The notes under the pieces were generated by a model that saw only the letters and a list, made by a program, of their open reading frames with translations, did not search any database and was not told where the DNA came from. From positions 63,798,001-63,862,000 of the forward strand of contig NC_135887.1 of the NCBI RefSeq assembly GCF_964194155.1: a DNA stretch of 64,000 nucleotides, given 5' to 3'. This document shows positions 10,872-31,169 of the stretch, piece by piece. Made by a program: the position numbers and the translations under genes. Position 1 is the stretch's first letter. Each line of letters starts with the position of its first letter. The stretch is from Cetorhinus maximus (taxonomy: Eukaryota).

Positions 10872-10940
10872 GCAAAAGCAAAGAAGCAGAAATAAAGCGA
10901 ATCAACAAAGAATTGGCAAACATTCGTTCTAAGTTTAAAG
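10872..10940 (+). CDS. AP2A2: AP2A2-like exon 2
   Basis: CAG acceptor; (C)[23 protein letters not shown]; 69 nt; GTAAGG donor; phases match neighbouring exons. Confidence 0.96.
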
Positions 10941-16978: not shown

Positions 16979-17772
16979 TAGTGAGGGGATCGAGGTGGGT
17001 GGGGTGCGAGAGACATTGGGAGCTGTTGGCAGGAGATAACCACTTTGCTAAGATATTGCACCTGTGGAATTTCTGAATGTGGCTGTGTACATGCCACCAT
17101 TTTGCTTGACTATCCTGCCCTGATATGTGGAGGAGGAGATAGCTGGTAGAAAGTAAAGTTCAGTGTGCCTTTGCTGTGGACCATCTGGTCTAAAGGCATT
17201 ATTGTAATTCGGCTTCTTAACCTTTTTTTTAAATTGCACTGTTGCAGTAATCCTGCACAGGCCATACTTGGGAATATGACAAGTGCTGGCCTTGCCAGCT
17301 GTGCCATGTCCCTTGAACAAATAAATAAAAAATGTCACTGTGATTAACCATGTTGTATTTAATTCCACTGGGTGAAGGTGGAATCTTTTTAGCATTAAGT
17401 CATGCAGTAATAAAACTCATGCACCCTACCCGTACTACCCTCCAGATCTCTTTACACCAGGAAAAACAGCATGCCAAATGGTTCAGACTAAAAATGACAG
17501 TTGGTGTAGTGAGTGCACTGAAGTAGAATTATTTTCCCAAGTACAGTTTGAAGTAAAATGAGGTTCAAGTGTTTAGTGCTTAGTGCTAACACTGGTTAAA
17601 GTTACACTTCCTCACAAGAATTCAAGAAAACCTAGGATTGTGGTCATCCAAAATCACATTCACATACTCCCTCCTTAAGATCAGATCAAGAGGAAGTATT
17701 GCCTCACGCATGTCTGTCTCTCATAGGTTTCATATGCTGCATAGTGCTGGAAGGGAATACATTTAAAAATGA

Positions 17773-18127
17773 AAAAAAAACGGAAAATGCTGGAAAAACT
17801 TGACTAGTCTGGCAGTATCAGTGGAGGGAGAAACGGAGTTAATGTTTCAAATCCGATATGACTCTTTGGAACTGAAGAGAGGTAGGGGGCTCTCGCTTCC
17901 TAACCAATCCTTGACCTTCTATTTTGCTCCAGCTGTCCCTCCCCTCATTTTTCAACAGCATAAAACCCATAACATTTCTATCTCTCTTCAGTTCTGAAGA
18001 ATAGTCATACGGAGTCGAAACGTTAACTGTGGTTCCCTCTCTGCAGATGCTGCCAGACCTGCTGAGTTTTTCCAGCATTTTCTGTTTTCCTTTCAGATTT
18101 CCAGCATCTGCAGTATTTTGCTTTTAC
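17773..18127 (+). mobile_element. Penelope-like element terminus (inverted plus direct pseudo-LTR) with hammerhead motif
   Basis: TSD TTTAAAAATGA (17762-17772 / 18128-18138). Inverted copy at about 17773-17875, direct copy at about 17990-18125. Confidence 0.8.
17989..18029 (+). ncRNA. Minimal type I hammerhead ribozyme motif (stem II damaged)
   Basis: CAGTT-CTGAAGA-A-TAGTC-ATACG-GAGTC-GAAA-CGT-T-AACTG: stem I is perfect, the core is canonical and stem III is the palindrome ACGT. Confidence 0.65.
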
Positions 18128-18173
18128 TTTAAAAATGAGATGTTTGTGAAATGTTCCTTCCTTTGATTTGCAG

Positions 18174-18316
18174 GTGACAAGGCTTTGGATGGCTACAGCA
18201 AGAAAAAGTATATTTGCAAACTTCTTTTCATCTTCCTCCTTGGTCATGATATTGATTTTGGTCACATGGAGGCAGTGAACCTACTTAGTTCCAATAAATA
18301 TACAGAGAAACAAATT
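18174..18316 (+). CDS. AP2A2: AP2A2-like exon 3
   Basis: (G)[47 protein letters not shown]; 143 nt; AG acceptor, GTAAGT donor. Confidence 0.97.
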
Positions 18317-18728
18317 GTAAGTAGGACAGCGGTTACTGCCTTATTGAATTTAACAGACAGAAGACTTGTTTTGCTTCTTGAATGTAGTTGGCCATAGTAA
18401 CACCAGCAGGAACACTGTCCTTTGACAGCATGGAAATGGATAGTGTTTTCAGGGAATCTTTACTTTGACAAGCCCAAGGAGGCATTTTGTGTGGATATGC
18501 TGGCCATGCTTCTTGTTAAATCTATTGGTTGTAAATGAGGAGTTGCGTAATTTAAGCTCCCATTTGTCCTATTTTCAGTCAGATTTCCAGTATCCTGTGA
18601 ATCCACATTGAATTTTTTCTCCTTTTTCTGCCTATTCATTTTTCTGCAGTGCTGTGGCTAGGGATCATATCTGGCTCCTGCTTGTGGACTTTCCTTTTAA
18701 TCAGTGCAGCCAGCAAGTACATTTGTGC

Positions 18729-18802
18729 GGCTGTTTGGCTCTGTTGGTTAGACTGTGGCGCTCATGATGCCAAAGTCTCAGGTTTGATCCTCTCAATAGC
18801 CA
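18729..18802 (+). pseudogene. tRNA-Ile(AAT)-derived retropseudogene with no poly(A) tail
   Basis: 74 nt colinear with my recalled vertebrate tRNA-Ile-AAT (GGCCGGTTAGCTCAGTTGGTTAGAGCGTGGTGCTAATAACGCCAAGGTCGCGGGTTCGATCCCC...GCCA), with many substitutions. Flanked by direct repeat AGCCAGCAAGT(A/G)CATTTGTG. Confidence 0.75.
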
Positions 18803-19019
18803 GCAAGTGCATTTGTGGTTACCACATAGAGCAGGAGCTGTTCACAGCAAGTCCCAATCACTATGCAGAAAAGGTCAAGATGGGTAAGGCTGAAGGCGAT
18901 CACCATTGGCTTCTTGGCGACTTTCTCATGCAGGGTTGGATAAAGAATAATCATCCTGTTAAGAATAGGTGTTGGCCATTTAGCTTAACTTTGGGCTTTG
19001 TGCACAAATAGCTTTTGCA

Positions 19020-19840
19020 AAGAGCTTTCAGGCTGAGGTCAGCAAGAATTATAGAATAGTTATAATGAGGGACTTTAATGATCCAAGCTGAGCTAGGCAT
19101 GGTGTTAAAGGGTGGAGAGAGGCAAGAATTTCTAGAGTGTGTTCAGGAAAATTTTCTATATCGGTATGTTTTCATTCCAAGGAAGGAGGCATCATTGGAT
19201 CAGGTTCTGGGGAAGATGCTGTGTCAATTGGGGAACACTTAGGGGACAGTCATCATTGTATCATAAGGTTTAGTTTCGTTGTAGAAAAGGACATGGAACA
19301 ATTCAGAGTAAAAAAAACTTCAACGGCATGAGAAAGGATCTGTCCTAGGTAAATTGAAATCAAAGGTTGGCAACAAAACTGTCGTGGAACAATGGGCTGC
19401 CTTTAAAGAGGAAATGGTTCAGATCCAGTCAACGTACATCCCCATGAGGAGGGAAATGTAGGGCAAACAAATCCAAAGGTCCCTGGACAATGAGAGGGGT
19501 AGAGAGTAAATAAAAGATGCATATGACACATGTCAGGTGGATAGTACAAGTGAGAACCAGACTGAACATAGGAAGTTCAGAGGGAAATTGATAAAACAAT
19601 GAGAGAAGCAAAAGAGAGTATCAGAAGAGACTGGCAGCTAATGTAACAGGGAATCTAGAAGCATATAAATAGTAAAAAGGGTGGTAAAAGGAGGAGTGGG
19701 GCTGGTTAGGTGCTTTAAAGGAAATTTGTGTGTGGAGGCATGGGACACGGCTGAGGTTTTAAATGAGTACTTTATATCTATCTTTACCAAAGACCATGAC
19801 GCTGCTCAAGTCATAGTGAAAGAGGAGGTAGTTGAGACCC
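19020..19840 (+). mobile_element. CR1 LINE ORF2 endonuclease/linker fragment
   Basis: GACTTTAAT (DFN), GEHLGDSHH, and AEVLNEYFISIFTK in ORF 19681. Confidence 0.8.
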
Positions 19841-19844
19841 TAAT

Positions 19845-20030
19845 AAAAACAGAAAGTGCTGGAAAAACTCAGTAGGTCTGACAGCATCTGTAGAGAGCGA
19901 AACAGAGTTAACGTTTCAAGTCTGTATGACTCTTCCCTGGAACTTCTCTTTGGAACAGTTCCGAAGAAGAGTCACACTGGACTCGAAACGTTAACTCTAT
20001 TTCACTCTCCACAGATGCTGGGTTTTTCCA
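19845..20030 (+). mobile_element. Penelope-derived inverted pair with hammerhead motif (19957-19996)
   Basis: Reverse copy at about 19845-19945. Forward copy AGTT-CCGAAGA-A-GAGTC-ACACTG-GACTC-GAAA-CGT-T-AACT. No clear TSD. Confidence 0.7.
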
Positions 20031-21121
20031 ACTGTGATTAAGTAAACTTCTATAGCATATTAGTGTGGGCTAATGGGGAGGTGTGGGCTGTCTTTGTGGA
20101 TGCCCTTCTGTTTGAGCTAGAGAAGACAATGGCTTGATGTTTGTTGGTACATCTGTGCTCATCTGTTTGACTCCCCCTCCCCGTGCCTGACTCTCTATGC
20201 TGCTCTCAGCCCCTCGCCCTGTCTAGGACTCGAATCTCATTCTGCCATTCTCTCACACCCAATAAATCACATACCTGTATTCCCACTGCCAACAACCTTT
20301 TTACTTCCATGTCCCCAATGCCTCAGCCTTGCCATCATGTTTTGATACTGTCCCATTGCTATCTCACACACAATCCTCTTTAATTGTCCCGAAACATGTG
20401 ATCATTCCTGCTTTCACTCTATGCCCCAGGACTTTCTCCAATGATGCCAGATCCCAAAAGCTTTCTCCTTCCCTGGTATCCTATTCCAATGTTTCAAATA
20501 CTGCAACTCTGGATTCACACATCATGGAATCCCATCCCAGCTCTTTGAGATTTCCCTATTGCTTTAAAGGTGCAGGATCACCATCCCAACATAGCTCAAC
20601 TTCCCACTGCTCCCTTGTTTTATATTCAGAGCCTGGAGAAAAAGAGAGATAAAATTAACTACACAGTTAAATGAGTTTTTAATAAAAGTCAAGGAGACTG
20701 TGAACATTATCATCAACATTCCCCTTAAGCAGTCACCAACACTCCTACAGGATTTCTACTAATAATGGCAAAGCTCTGATAATTGCACGTAAGTAAGCAG
20801 GACATCTTCTTTCTCACCGTGAGCAATGTGGCATGAAATCTGCCAATAAAAATCAATCTTTGTAAGCCAGTAAAACAATCATCAGATTAAAAAGATCTGT
20901 CATTAAATCTGAGTAATGGGCTGTCTACTGTTACTGCCTAAGAGAGTATATTCCATTATATATCTATGGGGACTGCAGGTAGCCTGTGCAGAAGACTCCT
21001 CAGCTCAGAGCTGGTGTGTTTGATAGATGCCTGAATGTGGTGATGAGTCAAGTTCTGGATGCTGTATTGCAGGTTCTGTAATTAATGTCTCCCCTCTCCC
21101 TGTCTCTTTAAATAATTGCAG

Positions 21122-21315
21122 GGTTACCTTTTCATCTCAATCTTGGTGAATTCAAACAGTAAGTTGATGCGTTTAATAAACAATGCTCTCAAGAATGACC
21201 TGGCCAGCCGCAACCCTACGTTCATGGGGCTGGCCCTGCACTGCATTGCAAATGTTGGAAGCCGGGAGATGGCAGAGTCCTTTGCTGGTGAGATTCCAAA
21301 AATACTTGTCGCTGG
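21122..21315 (+). CDS. AP2A2: AP2A2-like exon 4
   Basis: [65 protein letters not shown]; 194 nt; AG/GTAAGT. MGLAL and AGEIPK are alpha-2-type residues. Confidence 0.97.
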
Positions 21316-23356
21316 GTAAGTGTTACTGTGACAGTAAATTTCATTTTTAAAGGACAGGTTTGATACTTTGTCTGTAACACTCTGCAACAGTGCTATCGGC
21401 ATATTTATCCCAGTGCCTGTACCAGGAGCCATGAAGTCCTTATCATTGACCTCATTTTCCGTGGTCATATCATGTTGAACAAAATAAAAAGTAGTGATAA
21501 AGAGGCAGCCAGATACCTGGAATATTCCGTCCTGCATTGCTTCAGTGATCTGCTCCAAATAGCATTTGTAGTTTTAGCTAAAGTTTGGTTTTGGTTAATT
21601 CTTGCCCATTTTCTTCTCTTCACCCTCTCCTCAGTCTTTGGTGTGTGCTTAGACTATCATTCCACTGTCACTGGTGACTCCTTCCACTTGTATTTACATG
21701 TGTGAGGCCAGACATTTCAGTATATACAACTACAGTGGAGAGAGGCTGCAGGAGGCCACTCTGCTCATTCTCTCTCTCTCATTGGGAGTCACAGTGAGCA
21801 GGAGTAGGGATGCTTCTTCTCCATTATAGTGCAGGGGCATTGAGACTAACTAGCCCCCACACTTCCCTCAGATCAGTTGATGCAGAACAGACTGAGCCTG
21901 TGACCTGCTGGTCTGTATAGCTGAGTTAAATGCTGAATTTAGTAACTGAACCATCAAGTCAGCTATTAGAAAGTGATGACATTTCTCTGTATAGGATGAT
22001 GGCTTCATGTGATGCCTCTTGTATTTTCTCTGGATTGTTTCCGATTTAACCTTAAATTTAAAATTAATAATAGCACTTGCAGCTGGTGAGATATCAGCTT
22101 TTAGATAAAACTTAAATCTTTCACAACAGAGTTAAAACAGAGTGCACTTTTTTTGTGACACCATTGAATGCCTTCTGTATATTTGTAGTTGTAAAATGTA
22201 TATGTGTGTGTGGACACATGCATATATATCTATTAAATTTACCATGTACTGCTACCTCTCCATTCAAAAGGCCTAAGTCAATCATGCCTGATCTCTTCAA
22301 TGTTAATTATGACCACATCTGTACGTCATGTTTCTGCTGGGGTTTTCCCATCATTATGATGGTGTGTGACACTGTGGTTCTTCACTGCTGTACCCACCAG
22401 GTGATTGCAGAGAATAATTAGTTTGATTTCCTTCTTATCCCATTTTGGACTGTTTTTAACCTCCTCAGGTAAGTTAATATTCAATTCCTTTTTATGTCAA
22501 AGATATTGTTCTGGTGATTCCTATTTACCAGGCAATTAACTGACAGAATTACGCTGCAAGATTTCACATTTTTAAACAAAAATCAATTTTATTATATATT
22601 AAAAATATTAACTTTACACTATAGGTTACAACTGCGTATGTTCTGAATTCAGTTTCACTTTGTTACAGCTCCTCTCTTCGCCCCCCCAAAAAGAGTTCCC
22701 TTAAACATTTTTGACAATCTTGAAGATTAATTCACTTCTTTAGGGACCAACCCACAAATTATGCCACAGCCCTCTGGAATTAAATTTAATTCTCTTTAGT
22801 ATTCCAGCTATTATTCCAAGGTAACATTCTATGGGGGTCCTTCCATTAGATTTTGGCTATGTGACCCTCCACTTTTTCTTTTACAGGCTTCAAGACTGTG
22901 GATTCCTCAGCTCCTTGTTTGGGTTGTTGGCAGATATCCAACTGCCTTCCCACAGCCTTCCAAACTAACTCTGCTGACTGATTTCTGCCATAAGGCTTTG
23001 TGAGGATCACTGTAGATTTCTTCCATTAGCTGCAAACTAGAACAAATTGTCCAGCTGCTTTTCCCTCACAAAATCCAAACTAAGATAGAGCCCCATGCGC
23101 ATTCCACACAGTGAACGACAAAGTTAGTATTTTCTTGACTGGGAGTGCAGGCCTAACTGATGATCACTTCCTGTTGGCTCCCTCAATCCGTTGAGATGCA
23201 GTCAACACCAAAGCAAAGCTGCAATTGCCTCTGTCTGTTCCAAACCAAACCGCTTACTTTTTTCAGCAAGCGTGCACATATAAATTAAACAGAAGAACTT
23301 TCTAATGAAGGCTCCACCCTGAATCACTATCTCCAAGGCAACTTGGCATGCTTTGG

Positions 23357-23647
23357 AACAAAAACAAAAATACCTGGAAAAACTCAGCAGGTCTGACAGC
23401 ATCTGCAGAGAGGAATACAGTTAACATTTCGAGTCCATATGACTCTTCAACAAAGCTAAGGAAAAATAGAAAAGAGGTGAAATATATTCCACCTCTTTTC
23501 CATTTTTCCTTAATTCTGTTGAAGAGTCATACGGACTCGAAACGTTAACTGTATTCCTCTCTGCAGATGCTGTCAGACCTGCTGAGTTTTTCCAGGTATT
23601 TTTGTTTTTGTTTTGGATTTCCAGTATCCGCAGTTTTTTGCTTTTAT
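23357..23647 (+). mobile_element. Penelope-derived palindromic insertion with hammerhead motif (23512-23550)
   Basis: 15-bp TSD CTTGGCATGCTTTGG (23342-23356 / 23648-23662). 128-bp inverted arms centred at 23484/23485. Confidence 0.88.
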
Positions 23648-24261
23648 CTTGGCATGCTTTGGGATGGTTCAAACAGAAATGCAAATAAATTATTTTACCT
23701 TCAATACAACTCTTTGATTCTGTCACTGATATGAATAATGTATATCTATAATGGAGTTTTATGACCCTCTTTCCCAGAATTGCTAGCTTTTAGATTATTT
23801 ATGGAGATAACATTTGACACCCTGGCTCAACCAAGAGGAGCAGAAATGGGTCACCCATTGTTCAATTTTTTTTCATTATCAACACTGACCTTATAAATGC
23901 AGATTAATTAAACCTAGGTTTGTTTCATTTGCCTTTACATTAGGGTTGTTTATCAGTTTCTTAACCAAGCTTTTTGCAGTCATCTATAGTTAAAACTTTA
24001 ATTCTTAAAAATAAAAGTTATATTCTAAAACATACGAATTATGAATTGGATTTTCATGACAGAAGTCTCACTGTGACACTCTTGTACTCCGTTCACTTTG
24101 TGCCCGTCGATATTTAGTAACTTAATTTCAGGTCGGTGATACCATTTTATTTGTTTGCTTTTAAATTCTTGATTATTCCCCCCTCCCCTTCTATTCCCAT
24201 CTGCATGCATGACCCCTATGACACCACAACACCCCCAACCCCCCCGTATCTTTCTGCTCCA

Positions 24262-24545
24262 TGATGAATGGTATGTCGATCAAGCAGACTCTTTGTCCTG
24301 GATCATGTTGAACTTCTTGAGTGTTGTTAGAGCTACACTTGTCCAGGCAATTGGAGAGTATTCCATCACACTCATGATTTGTGCCTTGTAGATGGTGGAC
24401 AGCCTTTGGGGAGTTGGGAACTGAATTAGTCATTGCAGAATTCCCAGCCTCAGATCTGTTCTTGTGGCCACTGTATTTATATGACTGCTTCAGTTAGGTT
24501 TTTGGTCAGCAGTAACCCTCAGGATGTTGATGGTGGGGAATTCAG
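24262..24545 (-). mobile_element. LINE RT C-terminal fragment (L2/CR1 group)
   Basis: Minus strand reads LSTIYKAQIMSVMEYSPIAWTSVALTTLKKFNMIQDK. Confidence 0.7.
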
Positions 24546-25764
24546 CAAAGCGAATACTCACTCTTCAAACTGATCTGTGGGAAACACTTCTTGAACTAGC
24601 ACAGACTGAATGAACTCAAAAAATATCACATTGGCCCACCAGGATGTTAGGGCCACTTGATCCTTTCAACTTCAACTTAATGAACTTTGAAAATATTATT
24701 TCACTATCACCAATATGTTGGGACTGTTTTCTTGTTTCAATTCATTTTGTTACTTCAAACATTAGAATACGCAGGCAATAACTGCAGAATCAGATCTTTA
24801 ATGAGACATCGCACTACACAAGCCATTATGTGTACAGGGTCTTTCATGAACTTGCCATTGAAATGAGAACTTGGATAGATAACACTTCGCAATCCCAGCA
24901 TAAGTACAACATACAGTGATTCAATTACAGCTCCTGCTATTTCTACATTCCATGCATGCTCCACTAAATAATAGTTCGTATTGATGCATAAAAGTGACAT
25001 CAGAATAACAACATGAAGACATGATGCACTTATGTCCCCTCTATCTCTCCTAATCATTTTGTTACCATAGTCATGTGGTCCACAATTTTATTACTTGTAA
25101 GCACAGCAAATAGATCAACATGTCCCAAACTAAAGACATGGATGAATGACTTTCACACATTCCATCAGTAACTTTAGGTCCACTTGCATAGTACTGCTTA
25201 GCAGAAAGCTGCTTTAACTCATTGTGCCTTGATCCCACAAACGGTCCAGCACAATGGTGGTGTGAGCTGTCATTTCCACATCATTATTTTGGGCCTTATC
25301 ATTAATGTGCAAGAGAAAGGAAGAGCTAGTTAGTAACTTGGACAATCCCAGTTAAACTTCTGACACTATTGGAGCTTGATTGTTACATCAAGTTTGGCTG
25401 TGCTCACTGTTTCCTGTGTGGCACATTTCTGGTCTTGACCATATTATCAGATGGATATGGCAGGGATACAGTGTGCTATTTTATAGGGAGGCAAGGCAGC
25501 AGCATTTAGAGAACACATTCAAAGTAATTGAGCAATCACTGCTAATTTGTAATATACACAGCAGGTTCCAACAGCCTCTGGATGAGCAAACCATTTTGCT
25601 GCTTTGGGTGTGACTCTTTGCAAGTTTTGCTGAAGAGGTAATCTTTCAGATGTTGGTGTGCATTTTGAAGATTTTCAGTTCCAGTGTTACTTTTTGTCAG
25701 CCTAAGAAAGGAGTGGTTGGGTTGTGTTGTTTCCTCTGTTATAGGTTGTATATTCACGTTTCAG

Positions 25765-25894
25765 GGATACTATGGACAGTGCGAAGCAGAGTGCTGCTCT
25801 ATGTCTGTTGCGGTTGTACAGGACATCTCCTGATCTGGTACCCATGGAAGAATGGACGTCACGAGTGGTTCATCTTTTGAATGACCAGCACTTG
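25765..25894 (+). CDS. AP2A2: AP2A2-like exon 5
   Basis: [43 protein letters not shown]; 130 nt; AG/GTAACA. Confidence 0.96.
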
Positions 25895-25984
25895 GTAACA
25901 CCATTCAAGATTTCCTTCCAATAACGTATAATCACTGAAGGATCATTATAGTTTTTTTGATTGCCCTATGTCTCCTCCATCCAG

Positions 25985-26086
25985 GGCGTTGTAACTGCTG
26001 CTACAAGTCTGATCACCATACTTGCGCAGAAGAACCCTGAAGAGTTTAAAACTTGTGTTTCCATGGCGATTTCAAGGCTGAGTCGG
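25985..26086 (+). CDS. AP2A2: AP2A2-like exon 6
   Basis: [34 protein letters not shown]; 102 nt; follows a 90-nt intron; AG/GTAATA. Confidence 0.96.
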
Positions 26087-26279
26087 GTAATACGTTCTTT
26101 TGCTTTGTTCATGTGTAGCACTTCACTGTCAGCTAACATGAATGAGAAATGTAAAATGAAAAAGAGCGCAACTGCACACACCCTGGAGGGTCAAGTATAG
26201 TTTATTGTGGGAACATGAATCCTATAGGGCAGGATGTAGTTTAGTGTGGGAATTGATCTCGCAGCAGTTACATTTTGCA

Positions 26280-27140
26280 GAAGAGAGTTCCAAGCTTCTT
26301 GTCACCCTTTTCATGAAGAAACATTTCCTAATTTCAACACTAAAAGGCCTGACTCTGAATTATTTTGACTATGTGCCCAGTCCTAGTCTCCCCAATGAGC
26401 AGAAATGGTTTCTACCAATCTATCCCTTTGATCAAACTGCTCCATAACCTTCTAAATTCCAAGGAATACAACCCTAGTTTATTTATTTGTTCCTTGTAGT
26501 TTTTTGCCCTTTGACTACAGTTCTAGTAAAGCTATCCTGCACTCCCTCTAAGGCCAATGCATCCTTTCTAAGTGCTTGGTGCTCAGATCTGCTCACAACA
26601 CCCTAGGTGTGGTCTAACCAGGGCTTTGTGTAGCTGAAGCACATCTTCTACCAACTTCTAGTTGGAGCAGCATTCCACGAGCCCTTTTGATTTAGTTTTG
26701 TACCCGCTCATGTCATTTTAATGAGCCGTGTACCTGGACCTCAAATTCTTTGAACCTCCACTTATTCTAATTTTTCACCAATTAAAAAGTATCCTGTTCT
26801 ATCCTTTCTAGGTCCAAAATGGATAACCTTACATTTATTTACATTGAAATCCATTTGTCACATTTTTTACCCATTCATTTAATCTATCAGTAATACTATT
26901 TAATTTTGTGCTTCCATCTACACAACTCATAATACTGCCTATCTTTGTGTCAAGTTTATATATATATAGCCTTTTATCATATTATCTAAGTCGTTAAAGA
27001 ATACAATGAATAGATGAACCCCCAACACAGATAATTGCAAGACATTGCAAGATGTCTCTCTGATAGCCCAGGTAAATAACATCACTGGCAGTCCCCTGTC
27101 CACTACTTTATCACTACCTTTGGAAAATGAAACCAGATAC
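26280..27140 (-). mobile_element. Old CR1 LINE fragment
   Basis: Reverse-strand CR1 motifs ALVRPHL, MDFNVNKCKVIHFG and VFFNDLD. Confidence 0.7.
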
Positions 27141-27457
27141 ACTAGGCATGACCTATCTATTTTTTATTCAGCCGTGGCATGTAAGTGCACTGGTAAGGCC
27201 GGCATTGATTCCTATGAAACTCTAGTCCTAAGTGACAGGGAGCATTGTGGTTTGGGAACATCAGCTCTGGAGGATGTGATAAAATTTAGTGCTGGAACGA
27301 GAAGTCTATAGGGTGCTGTGAAGTTTTAAGAGGGAATGTGAATCCTGTAGTGTGGATTGTACTTTGATGTGGGGATGTGAATATTGTAGTCTGGAGTATA
27401 GTTTATTGTAGTGTAGAGTGTAGTTTAGTGCGGGAATATGAATATTGTATTGTGGAG

Positions 27458-28017
27458 ATAAAAGCAAAAAACTGCGGATGCTGGAAATCCAAAAAAAAAA
27501 ACCTGGAAAAACTCAGCAGGTCTGACAGCACCTGCGGAGAGGAACACAGTTAACGTTTCGAGTCTGTATAACTCTTCAACAGAACTAAGGAAAAATAGAA
27601 AAGAGGTGAAATATAAGCTGGTTTAAGGGAAGGGTGGGACAGGTAGAGCTGAATAGAGGGCCAGTGATAGGTGGAGATAACCAAGAGATGTCATAGACAA
27701 AAGCACAAAGAGGTGTTGAAGCTGGTGTTATTATCTAAGAAATGTGATAATAAAGGTACAGATAGCCCTAGTGGGGGTGAGGTGGGGGGAAGGGATCGAA
27801 ATAGGCTAAAAGGCAGAGATAAAATAATGGATGGAAATACATTTAAAAATAATGGAAATAGGTGGGAAAAGAAAAATCCATATATATTGGAAAAAAGGGG
27901 GATTGGAAAGGGGGTGGGGATGGAGGAGAGAGTTCATGATCTAAAATTGTTGAACTCAATATTCAGTCCGAAAGGCTGTAAAGTGCCTAGTCGGAAGATG
28001 AAGTGCTGTTCCTCCAG
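27458..28017 (-). mobile_element. 5'-truncated Penelope-like retroelement (GIY-YIG C-terminus plus 3' pseudo-LTR with hammerhead motif)
   Basis: Minus strand LEEQHFIFRLGTLQPFGLNIEFNNFRS*, typical of the end of a PLE ORF. Hammerhead motif at 27547-27586. 15-bp TSD TATTGTATTGTGGAG (27443-27457 / 28018-28032). Confidence 0.85.
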
Positions 28018-29931
28018 TATTGTATTGTGGAGTATAGTTTAGTGTGGGAATGTGAATATTGTAGTATGGAGTATAGTTTAGTGTGGGACTATGAATGCGA
28101 AAGTGTGGAGTATAGTTTAGAGTGGGAATGTGAATCCTGTAGTGTGGAGTATAGCTTAGTGTGGGAATGTGAATGCTATAGTGTGGAGTATAGTTTAGTG
28201 TGGGAATGTGAATATTGTTGTGTTGAGTATAGTTTAGTGTTGGAATGTGAATATCGCAGTGTGGACTGTAGCTTAGTGTGAGAATGTGATTACTGTAGTG
28301 CGGAGTATAGTTTACTATGGGAATGCGAATCCTGTAGCGTGGGAATGTGAATATTGTAGTGTGGAGTATGGTTTAGTGTAGGAATATGATTGTTGGAGTG
28401 TGGGAATGTGAATATTGTCATGTGGAGTCTAGTTTAGTTTTGGAATGTGAATATTGTAGCGTGGAGTATAGTTTAGTGTGGGAATGTGAATATTGTATTG
28501 TGTAGCATAGTTTAGTGGGGAAATGTGAATCCTATACTGTAGAGTATACTTTAGGGTGGGAATGTGAGTATTTTAGTGTGGGGTATAGTTTAGTTTGGGA
28601 ATGTGAATATTGTAGTGTGGAGTATAGTTTAGTGTGCGAATGTGAATATTTTAGTGTGGAGTACAGTTTAGTTTTGGAATGTGAATATTGTAGTGTTGGG
28701 TATAGTTTAGTGTGAGTATGCATTTTGTCATGTGGAGTACAGTTTAGTGTGGGAATGTGAATATTTTAGTGTGGAGTATAGCTTAGTGTGGGAATGTGAC
28801 TATTTTACTGTGGAGTCTAGATTAGTGTGGGAATGTGAATGTTGTAGTGTGTAGTATAGTTTAGTGCTGGAATGTGAATCCTATAGTGTGGAGTATAGTT
28901 TAGTGTGGGAATGTGAATATTTTAGTGTGGAGTATAGTTTAGTGTGGGGATGTGAATGTTGTAGTGTGTAGTATAGTTTAGCGCTGGACTGTGAATCCTA
29001 TAATGTGGAGTATAGTTTAGTGTGGGAATGTGAATATTTTAGTGTGGAGTATAGTTTAGTGTGGGAATGTGAATGTTGTAGTGTGTAGTATAGTTTAGTG
29101 CTGGAATGTGAATCTTATAGTGTGGAGTATAGTTTAATGTGGGAATGTGAATATTGTCGTGTTGAGTATAGTTTAGTGTGGGAATGTGAATATAGTTGTG
29201 TGTTGTATAGTTTCGTGTGAGAATGTGAATCCTACAGTGTGGAGTATGGATAAGTGTGGAAATGTGAATATTTTAGTGTGGGGTATAGTTTAGTGTGGGA
29301 ATGTGAATCCTGTAGTGTGGCGTATAGTTTAATGTTAGAATGTGAATATTGCCTTGTGGACTGTAGTTTAGTGTGAGAATGTGATTATTCTAGTGCGGAG
29401 TAAAGTTTAGTGCAGGAATGTGAATCCTGTATTGCGGAGTATAGTTTAGTGTGGGAATGTGAATATTGTCGTGTGGAGAATAGTTTAGTTTGGGAATGTG
29501 AATATTGTAGTGTGGAGTATAGTTTAGTATGGGAATGTGAATCCCGTGTGTGGGAATGTGAATATTTTAGTGTGGAGTATAGTTTAGCGTCTCAATGTGA
29601 ATATTGCCGTGTGGACTGTAGCTTAGTGTGAGAATGTGATTACTGTCGTGCGGAGTATAGTTTGCTGAGGGAATGTGAATCCTGTAGTGTGGGAATGTAA
29701 ACACTGTAGTGTGGAGTATAGTTTAGTGTAGGAATATGAATATTGTAGTGTGGAGTATAGTTTAGTGTAGGAATATGAATATTGTAGTGTGGGAATGTGA
29801 ATATTGTCGTATGGAGACTAGTTTAGTTTTGGAATGTGAATATTGTAGAGTGGAGTATAGTTTAGTGTGAGAATGGTGAATATTGTAGTGTGGAGTACAG
29901 CTTAGTGCGGGAATGTGATCATTGTTGTGTA

Positions 29932-31060: not shown

Positions 31061-31169
31061 ATTGTATCATCTGCTTCGACTGACCTCCAGGACTACACCT
31101 ATTACTTTGTCCCGGCACCTTGGCTTTCAGTGAAGCTTCTTCGGCTGTTGCAGTGCTATCCTCCACCAG
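31061..31169 (+). CDS. AP2A2: AP2A2-like exon 7
   Basis: [36 protein letters not shown]; 109 nt; AG/GTGAGG. Confidence 0.97.

Follow-up and report, generated by a model that had tools for sequence, protein, structure and literature searches.

Penelope-like elements (PLEs) that encode an endonuclease (EN+ PLEs) insert in a layout that has already been published, in which a 5'-truncated copy is accompanied by an inverted one and a tail of 30-40 bp stands on one side only (PMC8557442; PMC3846280, on Pen2a_Av; PMC2377424, on D. virilis Penelope). In these accounts of insertion structure, the inverted 5' copy stands head to head with the other, the junction shows microhomology, the target is duplicated, and reverse transcriptase (RT) is followed by a C-terminal GIY-YIG endonuclease. 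Here we describe four insertions from a 64,000-nt window of Cetorhinus maximus contig NC_135887.1 (the whole stretch that was analysed; coordinates are positions within it), lying in introns of an adaptin gene, whose family is alike in all these respects.

The minimal hammerhead ribozymes of metazoan PLEs (PMC4209133) are a second close parallel. They have a short helix I, one additional base that separates position 9 from 10.1, a G10.1-C11.1 pair and a palindromic 15.2-16.2 without helix III, as do the motifs here, and opposite-strand pairs 100-700 bp apart are reported for PLEs in the same paper. The combination of minimal hammerheads with fold-back ends has been described for PLEs before, and the window copies add one member to it. 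What the hammerhead does in PLEs is presented as an open question (PMC8557442, PMC4209133).

A third parallel is the anole Poseidon element PAc, whose protein nicks and extends both DNA strands in vitro from two internal start sites bounding the tail, independently of hammerhead cleavage (PMC11167929). The element here resembles PAc, as described there, in two putative RT starts bounding the tail, in presumed nicking of both strands and in a hammerhead in the pseudo-long terminal repeat (pLTR). PAc belongs to the Penelope/Poseidon clade and its frame starts in stem II, whereas the linker of the element here is of Neptune type and its stem II contains no start codon that lies in an open frame. 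We consider it very probable that the insertions derive, with loss of 5' sequence, from an abundant autonomous PLE with such a linker, and likely that their fold-backs arose by dual priming with head-to-head joining of two cDNAs.

Four insertions and their parent element

The insertions are numbered 1 to 4 from left to right. Insertion 1 (17773..18127) is a head-to-head pair of an old type, called A6 after the letter at position 6 of its hammerhead core, with a damaged, tail-less minus arm (17773 to about 17890) and a tailed plus arm (about 17903 to 18127) between the copies of an 11 bp target-site duplication (17762..17772 and 18128-18138). Insertion 2 (19845 to about 20031) is also a head-to-head pair; both arms are untailed, the plus arm has an internal deletion, and a search for a target duplication, with mismatches allowed too, found none. 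In insertion 3 (23357..23647), which belongs to a U6 sub-lineage, two arms of 128 nt each (23357-23484 and 23485-23612) join at an ATAT microhomology; only the plus arm carries a tail, of 35 nt, and the duplication is 15 bp long (23342..23356 and 23648-23662). Insertion 4 (27458..28017, minus strand), of the U6 sub-lineage as well, is a single 5'-truncated copy of 560 nt with a tail and a 15 bp duplication (27443..27457 and 28018-28032). The inverted repeats are 76% identical in insertion 1, 90% in insertion 2 and, over 128 nt without a spacer, 95% in insertion 3. A profile search of the window returned these seven arms and no further ones. An earlier note, made from the letters of this DNA, had placed four insertions here, three of them inverted pairs and three with target duplications of 11-15 bp, and all of this was confirmed.

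Insertion 4 reveals the parent, as it contains the last 27 codons and the stop of a PLE GIY-YIG endonuclease frame (27934..28017, minus strand). Twelve longer genomic copies have the same GIY-YIG end together with the RT motif YIDD, and one locus, L261, has an open frame of 539 aa matching RVT_1 (E 3e-7) and, at E 3e-4 and slightly below the cut-off, GIY-YIG, so that RT and a GIY-YIG endonuclease at the C terminus are carried by a single frame. Because insertion 4 and the longer copies share the endonuclease frame, the window copies are truncation products of an autonomous family. The layout of EN+ PLEs is likewise present: 5' truncation, an inverted 5' copy, a one-end tail of 30-40 bp and a target duplication. 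The four insertions are genuine 5'-truncated copies of an abundant PLE family and ordinary truncation products. The PLE origin proposed in the earlier note is supported by these coding sequences; its description of a short non-coding fold-back family does not hold, since insertion 4 carries a coding end.

By eye, the frame has a CCHH zinc finger with two Cys between GIY and YIG, LVYCIRCSQCG(F/L)LYIGET followed by EH...H. Before it stands a CX4CxxC linker, CPRRRCNTC in L261 and CNRRRCNTC in other copies. A CX2-5CxxC linker before the endonuclease is described as a mark of Neptune, shared with Nematis (PMC8557442), and the parent element would be Neptune-like as judged from this motif. A sequence search of the PDB with the L261 protein returned 0 matches. 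Direct repeats occur at L060, L067 and L261; among 20 long loci, a complete unit of pLTR, open reading frame and pLTR was not found.

An ATG 3' of the motif in insertion 3 (23568-23647) opens, by eye, a frame that runs through the tail and may start the protein of the element. In other PLEs, the first protein residues are encoded by the pLTR and the tail.

The family is large. A relaxed hammerhead pattern gave 58,583 exact matches in the 4.0 Gb genome and none for the reversed control. As a sample of introns we used 1.4 Mb inside five large genes (three ryanodine-receptor-like and two IP3-receptor-like), a set of low power whose genes may not be expressed where cleavage would matter. There, the profile search found 119 arms, which make up 93 insertions (26 pairs and 67 singles). 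If this density holds throughout the genome, there are about 2.6e5 insertions, a copy number far above that of the published EN+ PLE units cited above. The family is also present in contig runs X1-X24 of several organisms (A-E), so that it is common to related species.

Fold-back geometry and 5' ends

Arms stop at two 3' places, about +97 and +131 from C3, and the contig runs show two 3' ends as well, at 27456 and 27491 (that the runs represent RNA is a guess). Among 109 pairs, 91 could be classified: in 79 a tail is present on just one of the arms, 11 have no tail and a single pair has two. From 159 classed singles (77 tailed, 82 not), mixed pairs would be expected in 50% of cases (p 1e-13). 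This excess indicates dual priming rather than host selection. Judged by the longest match between the flanks, target duplications of 66 young pairs are most often 14 bp long (20 pairs) and measure 13-16 bp in 34, compared with 8-10 bp in the rotifer examples of the cited EN+ PLE papers. A further difference from those units is that most of the units here have shrunk to their two ends.

The 5' ends were mapped with 220 arms chosen without regard to the motif, of which 123 are young, having at least 89% identity to a library copy. Nineteen of these 123 end at -5..-1, the start of helix I, and seven exactly at the A of AGUU; by chance, a stretch of 5 nt should hold about 2.6 of the 74 ends that fall within -70..+69 (p 1e-11). 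Around the cut site (+30..+34), 5 of the 74 ends were found, an excess that is not significant (p 0.13). As the peak lies behind the hairpin from the polymerase's point of view, it more likely marks the 5' end of the element RNA than a stall. The sequence at the peak, (T/C)(T/C)AGTT, resembles an initiator. Old copies seemed to show further peaks at +24 and +28..+32, but the library lacked those families and the alignments simply broke off there; the 89% filter removed these peaks. A pyrimidine tract with an AG end lies at the start of helix I (23485-23514; upstream of the motif in L031-L090), much as D. virilis Penelope is reported to have an intron that ends at helix I. We rejected splicing there as the cause of the peak because short copies retain the AG and have no common upstream exon.

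The pile-up of 5' ends at helix I, with many short pairs meeting near one point, could suggest a separate non-autonomous family of short fold-backs, similar to MITEs or retrozymes and copied as a unit. Against this stands a continuum of arm lengths, from under 100 nt to more than 1.5 kb, that extends into the coding frame. In addition, pair junctions vary among loci, the tail is found on either arm, and every coding sub-lineage has its own fold-backs. The units are also single or head to head and tied to a coding frame, rather than head-to-tail tandems as in non-LTR retrozymes. Such a separate family is hardly credible.

We prefer an origin by dual priming. The PLE enzyme would use both strands of the nicked target as primers, each for one cDNA, with the two cDNAs starting at separate sites 33-35 nt from each other. 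They would then join head to head by microhomology, such as the ATAT of insertion 3, and short arms would be run-off copies that stop where the RNA has its 5' end, on the first A of helix I. With the one-tail rule (79/91) and the 5' peak, the two-start priming observed in vitro can be checked against genomic data.

Alternatively, a single cDNA, or an antisense template, could snap back and prime itself, and a pair would then need no second priming. Symmetric pairs that meet at palindromic microhomology, namely insertion 3 and one pair on contig C6 with both arms at -32, are what this model expects, and self-priming has been proposed in PMC3846280. However, many pairs have very unequal arms, and in some the two arms carry different sub-lineage letters, which the copying of one strand would not produce; both speak against self-priming as the sole route. 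We regard it as an unlikely explanation of the pairs in general. The pairs with unlike letters are C1:3195123/3196004 (U6, A6), C1:1731422/1731467 (C6, U6), C1:3022412/3023725 and L213:6020-6556; they look as if two RNAs or pLTRs had been copied into one site.

Hammerhead motifs in the window and their fate in introns

The hammerhead motif of insertion 1 (17989..18028, plus) has the canonical CUGAAGA core and two stem II mismatches, that of insertion 2 (19956..19996, plus) has U4C, that of insertion 3 (23511..23550, plus) combines an inherited A6U with one private change in stem I, and that of insertion 4 (27548..27587, minus) has the inherited A6U. A generic descriptor of minimal hammerheads matches three of the four (19961 plus, 23516 plus and 27582 minus) and nothing in each of 20 shuffles. 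The minimal type I layout with an extra A after A9 and a palindromic ACGU, as first noted from the letters, is supported. The Rfam scan that had been suggested gave 16 matches in the window at E<=10, none of them to a hammerhead family; a mir-627 match on the hairpin of insertion 3 was far under its cut-off and was discarded. Cleavage would be expected after GAAACGUU/C. It had also been stated that every sense copy deviates from the canonical fold. Indeed, none matches the consensus motif of the earlier note exactly, but A6U is an inherited state of the family and not a defect of single copies.

The earlier note further proposed sequestration as the reason why fold-backs persist in introns: paired with the antisense arm, the ribozyme would be kept from cutting the pre-mRNA. 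Zipping itself is predicted: the hairpins of the three pairs have predicted energies of -153.6, -93.4 and -203.4 kcal/mol, and the probability of a local stem II falls to 0.000 in all three, which would abolish the local hammerhead fold. Young intronic singles also number 8 sense and 13 antisense (p 0.38), and retrozymes in Xenopus are described as fewer in introns than between genes (preprint 10.64898/2026.07.22.740005). Persistence by this route is nevertheless very unlikely. The introns sampled contain four canonical motifs that are fully intact, and every one of them is sense and has no partner arm; singles with a canonical core number 12 sense and 6 antisense, and singles as a whole 29 sense and 38 antisense (p 0.33). 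Sense arms with a canonical core are paired in 4 of 16 cases compared with 22 of 39 for other sense arms (Fisher p 0.042, confounded by age), the reverse of what sequestration predicts. A comparison set of 30 arms, a positional sample on contig C1 that may lie within or outside genes, has a similar paired fraction (11/30 versus 52/119 intronic arms, p 0.54). Unpaired canonical sense copies are thus not depleted in this low-power sample, an outcome that the earlier note had named as refuting sequestration, and there would be little to sequester, since single minimal motifs gave no cleavage in the in vitro assays of PMC4209133. In the host pre-mRNA the motifs are probably carried along without activity: minimal PLE hammerheads depend on dimerisation or on help from a protein, the copies are damaged or U6, and three would be zipped into hairpins.

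Several points weigh against the origin that we prefer. Dual priming is read from the geometry of ends, and self-priming on an antisense template is what PMC3846280 proposes for the same layout. Twelve of the 91 classified pairs, with insertion 2 among them, violate the one-tail rule. Among young arms, 26 of 47 in introns belong to pairs, as do 11 of 30 in the C1 sample (p 0.16, not significant), the direction that sequestration would predict. The putative clade depends on a single linker motif, and a complete element with an intact start was not recovered.

Probable drift of the hammerhead core

One exact 35-mer occurs in the whole genome in 4,315 copies with U6 and 2,835 with the canonical core. 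With so many exact copies, A6U is inherited and not decay. A hand tally of position 6 among the first 100 relaxed-pattern matches listed gave A 17, U 42, C 39 and G 2. A tree of 44 long copies, with the motif excluded, forms a ladder, in which the median end-branch length falls from 0.060 in A6 (n=8) to 0.035 in U6 (n=21) and 0.014 in C6 (n=15; p 0.004 and 9e-5). The tree is midpoint-rooted, needs 6 changes where the minimum is 2, and draws its rows from searches that favour little-diverged copies. The branch lengths suggest the order A6 > U6 > C6, from oldest to youngest.

Along the same tree, stem II passes from GAGUC/GACUC through GGGUC/GACUC to GGGCC/GGCUC, with a compensatory change. In 66 distinct motifs, pairing is kept in 98.8% for stem II and 86.1% for stem I, as against 19-44% in slid controls; in stem II, a both-sided change of U-A to C-G is found in 9 rows, and A-U/G-U variation in 29/37. 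The covariation of stems I and II across copies that the earlier note looked for is therefore present, on few independent events: the U-A/C-G change is one lineage event, and the core letters of these motifs were fixed by the selection of rows.

The older A6 sub-lineages have the full canonical core (C3 U4 G5 A6 N7 G8 A9, G12 A13 A14, A15.1-U16.1, H17), which does not extend to the whole family, as insertions 3 and 4 have U instead of A6 and insertion 2 has U4C. A rod fold via pairing of U6-U7 with the core was considered as the selected structure and rejected, since it is lost in the C6-C7 branch. An older related family, seen in the gene sample (for instance on contigs C14 and C33), has a canonical core and a stem II AGGUC/GACCU with A-U in place of G10.1-C11.1.

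It is likely that a core letter which is otherwise invariant was replaced two times in the hammerhead, in a period when the element continued to spread. For the minimal hammerheads of metazoan PLEs, the core description in PMC4209133 reports only a U3-A8 variant, whereas here position 6 is mostly U or C among the matches tallied. A natural A6C hammerhead is described from phage Bcep176 (PMC3088659, PMC7151607), with the same substitution as the youngest sub-lineage here; as reported, A6C slows the ribozyme strongly in Mg2+ and less in Mn2+, which rescues the phage motif. The phage case is a single motif, while here the change is fixed in a transposon lineage, in thousands of copies, and follows U6. 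Possibly, though we lean somewhat against it, the active lineage swapped A6 for U and then C, with the other core letters and both stems kept and the motif at the very 5' end of the RNA; the fold would then be retained for a role other than fast free cleavage. Candidate roles would be either a protein-assisted or Mn2+-tuned cutter or a binding or priming element at the 5' end.

The A6 > U6 > C6 lineage offers three natural, dated variants that bear on the role of the PLE hammerhead; if the kept fold does have a role other than fast free cleavage, it would be a natural series for probing the purpose of that hammerhead. Our literature searches gave no report of U6 or C6 cores in PLEs or of shark-type PLE hammerheads; supplements and Lunse et al., whose collection reportedly holds about 150,000 PLE-linked hammerhead variants, may list such variants.

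Host gene

The host gene is an adaptin by its Adaptin_N matches and, from the similarity of the translated exons, we take it to be AP-2 alpha. Its exons, on the plus strand, lie at 10872-10940, 18174-18316 (exon 3), 21122-21315, about 25765-26087 and 31061-31169, and were located on either side of every insertion. All four insertions are thus intronic, and insertion 4 is antisense to the gene. The target of insertion 4 was an intronic minisatellite array with a 39 bp unit (27231-28500+, also 26181-26253), and the 15 bp that were duplicated belong to such a unit. Only 46 nt separate the end of insertion 1 from the exon 3 acceptor (18127-18174), near the expected position of the branch point.

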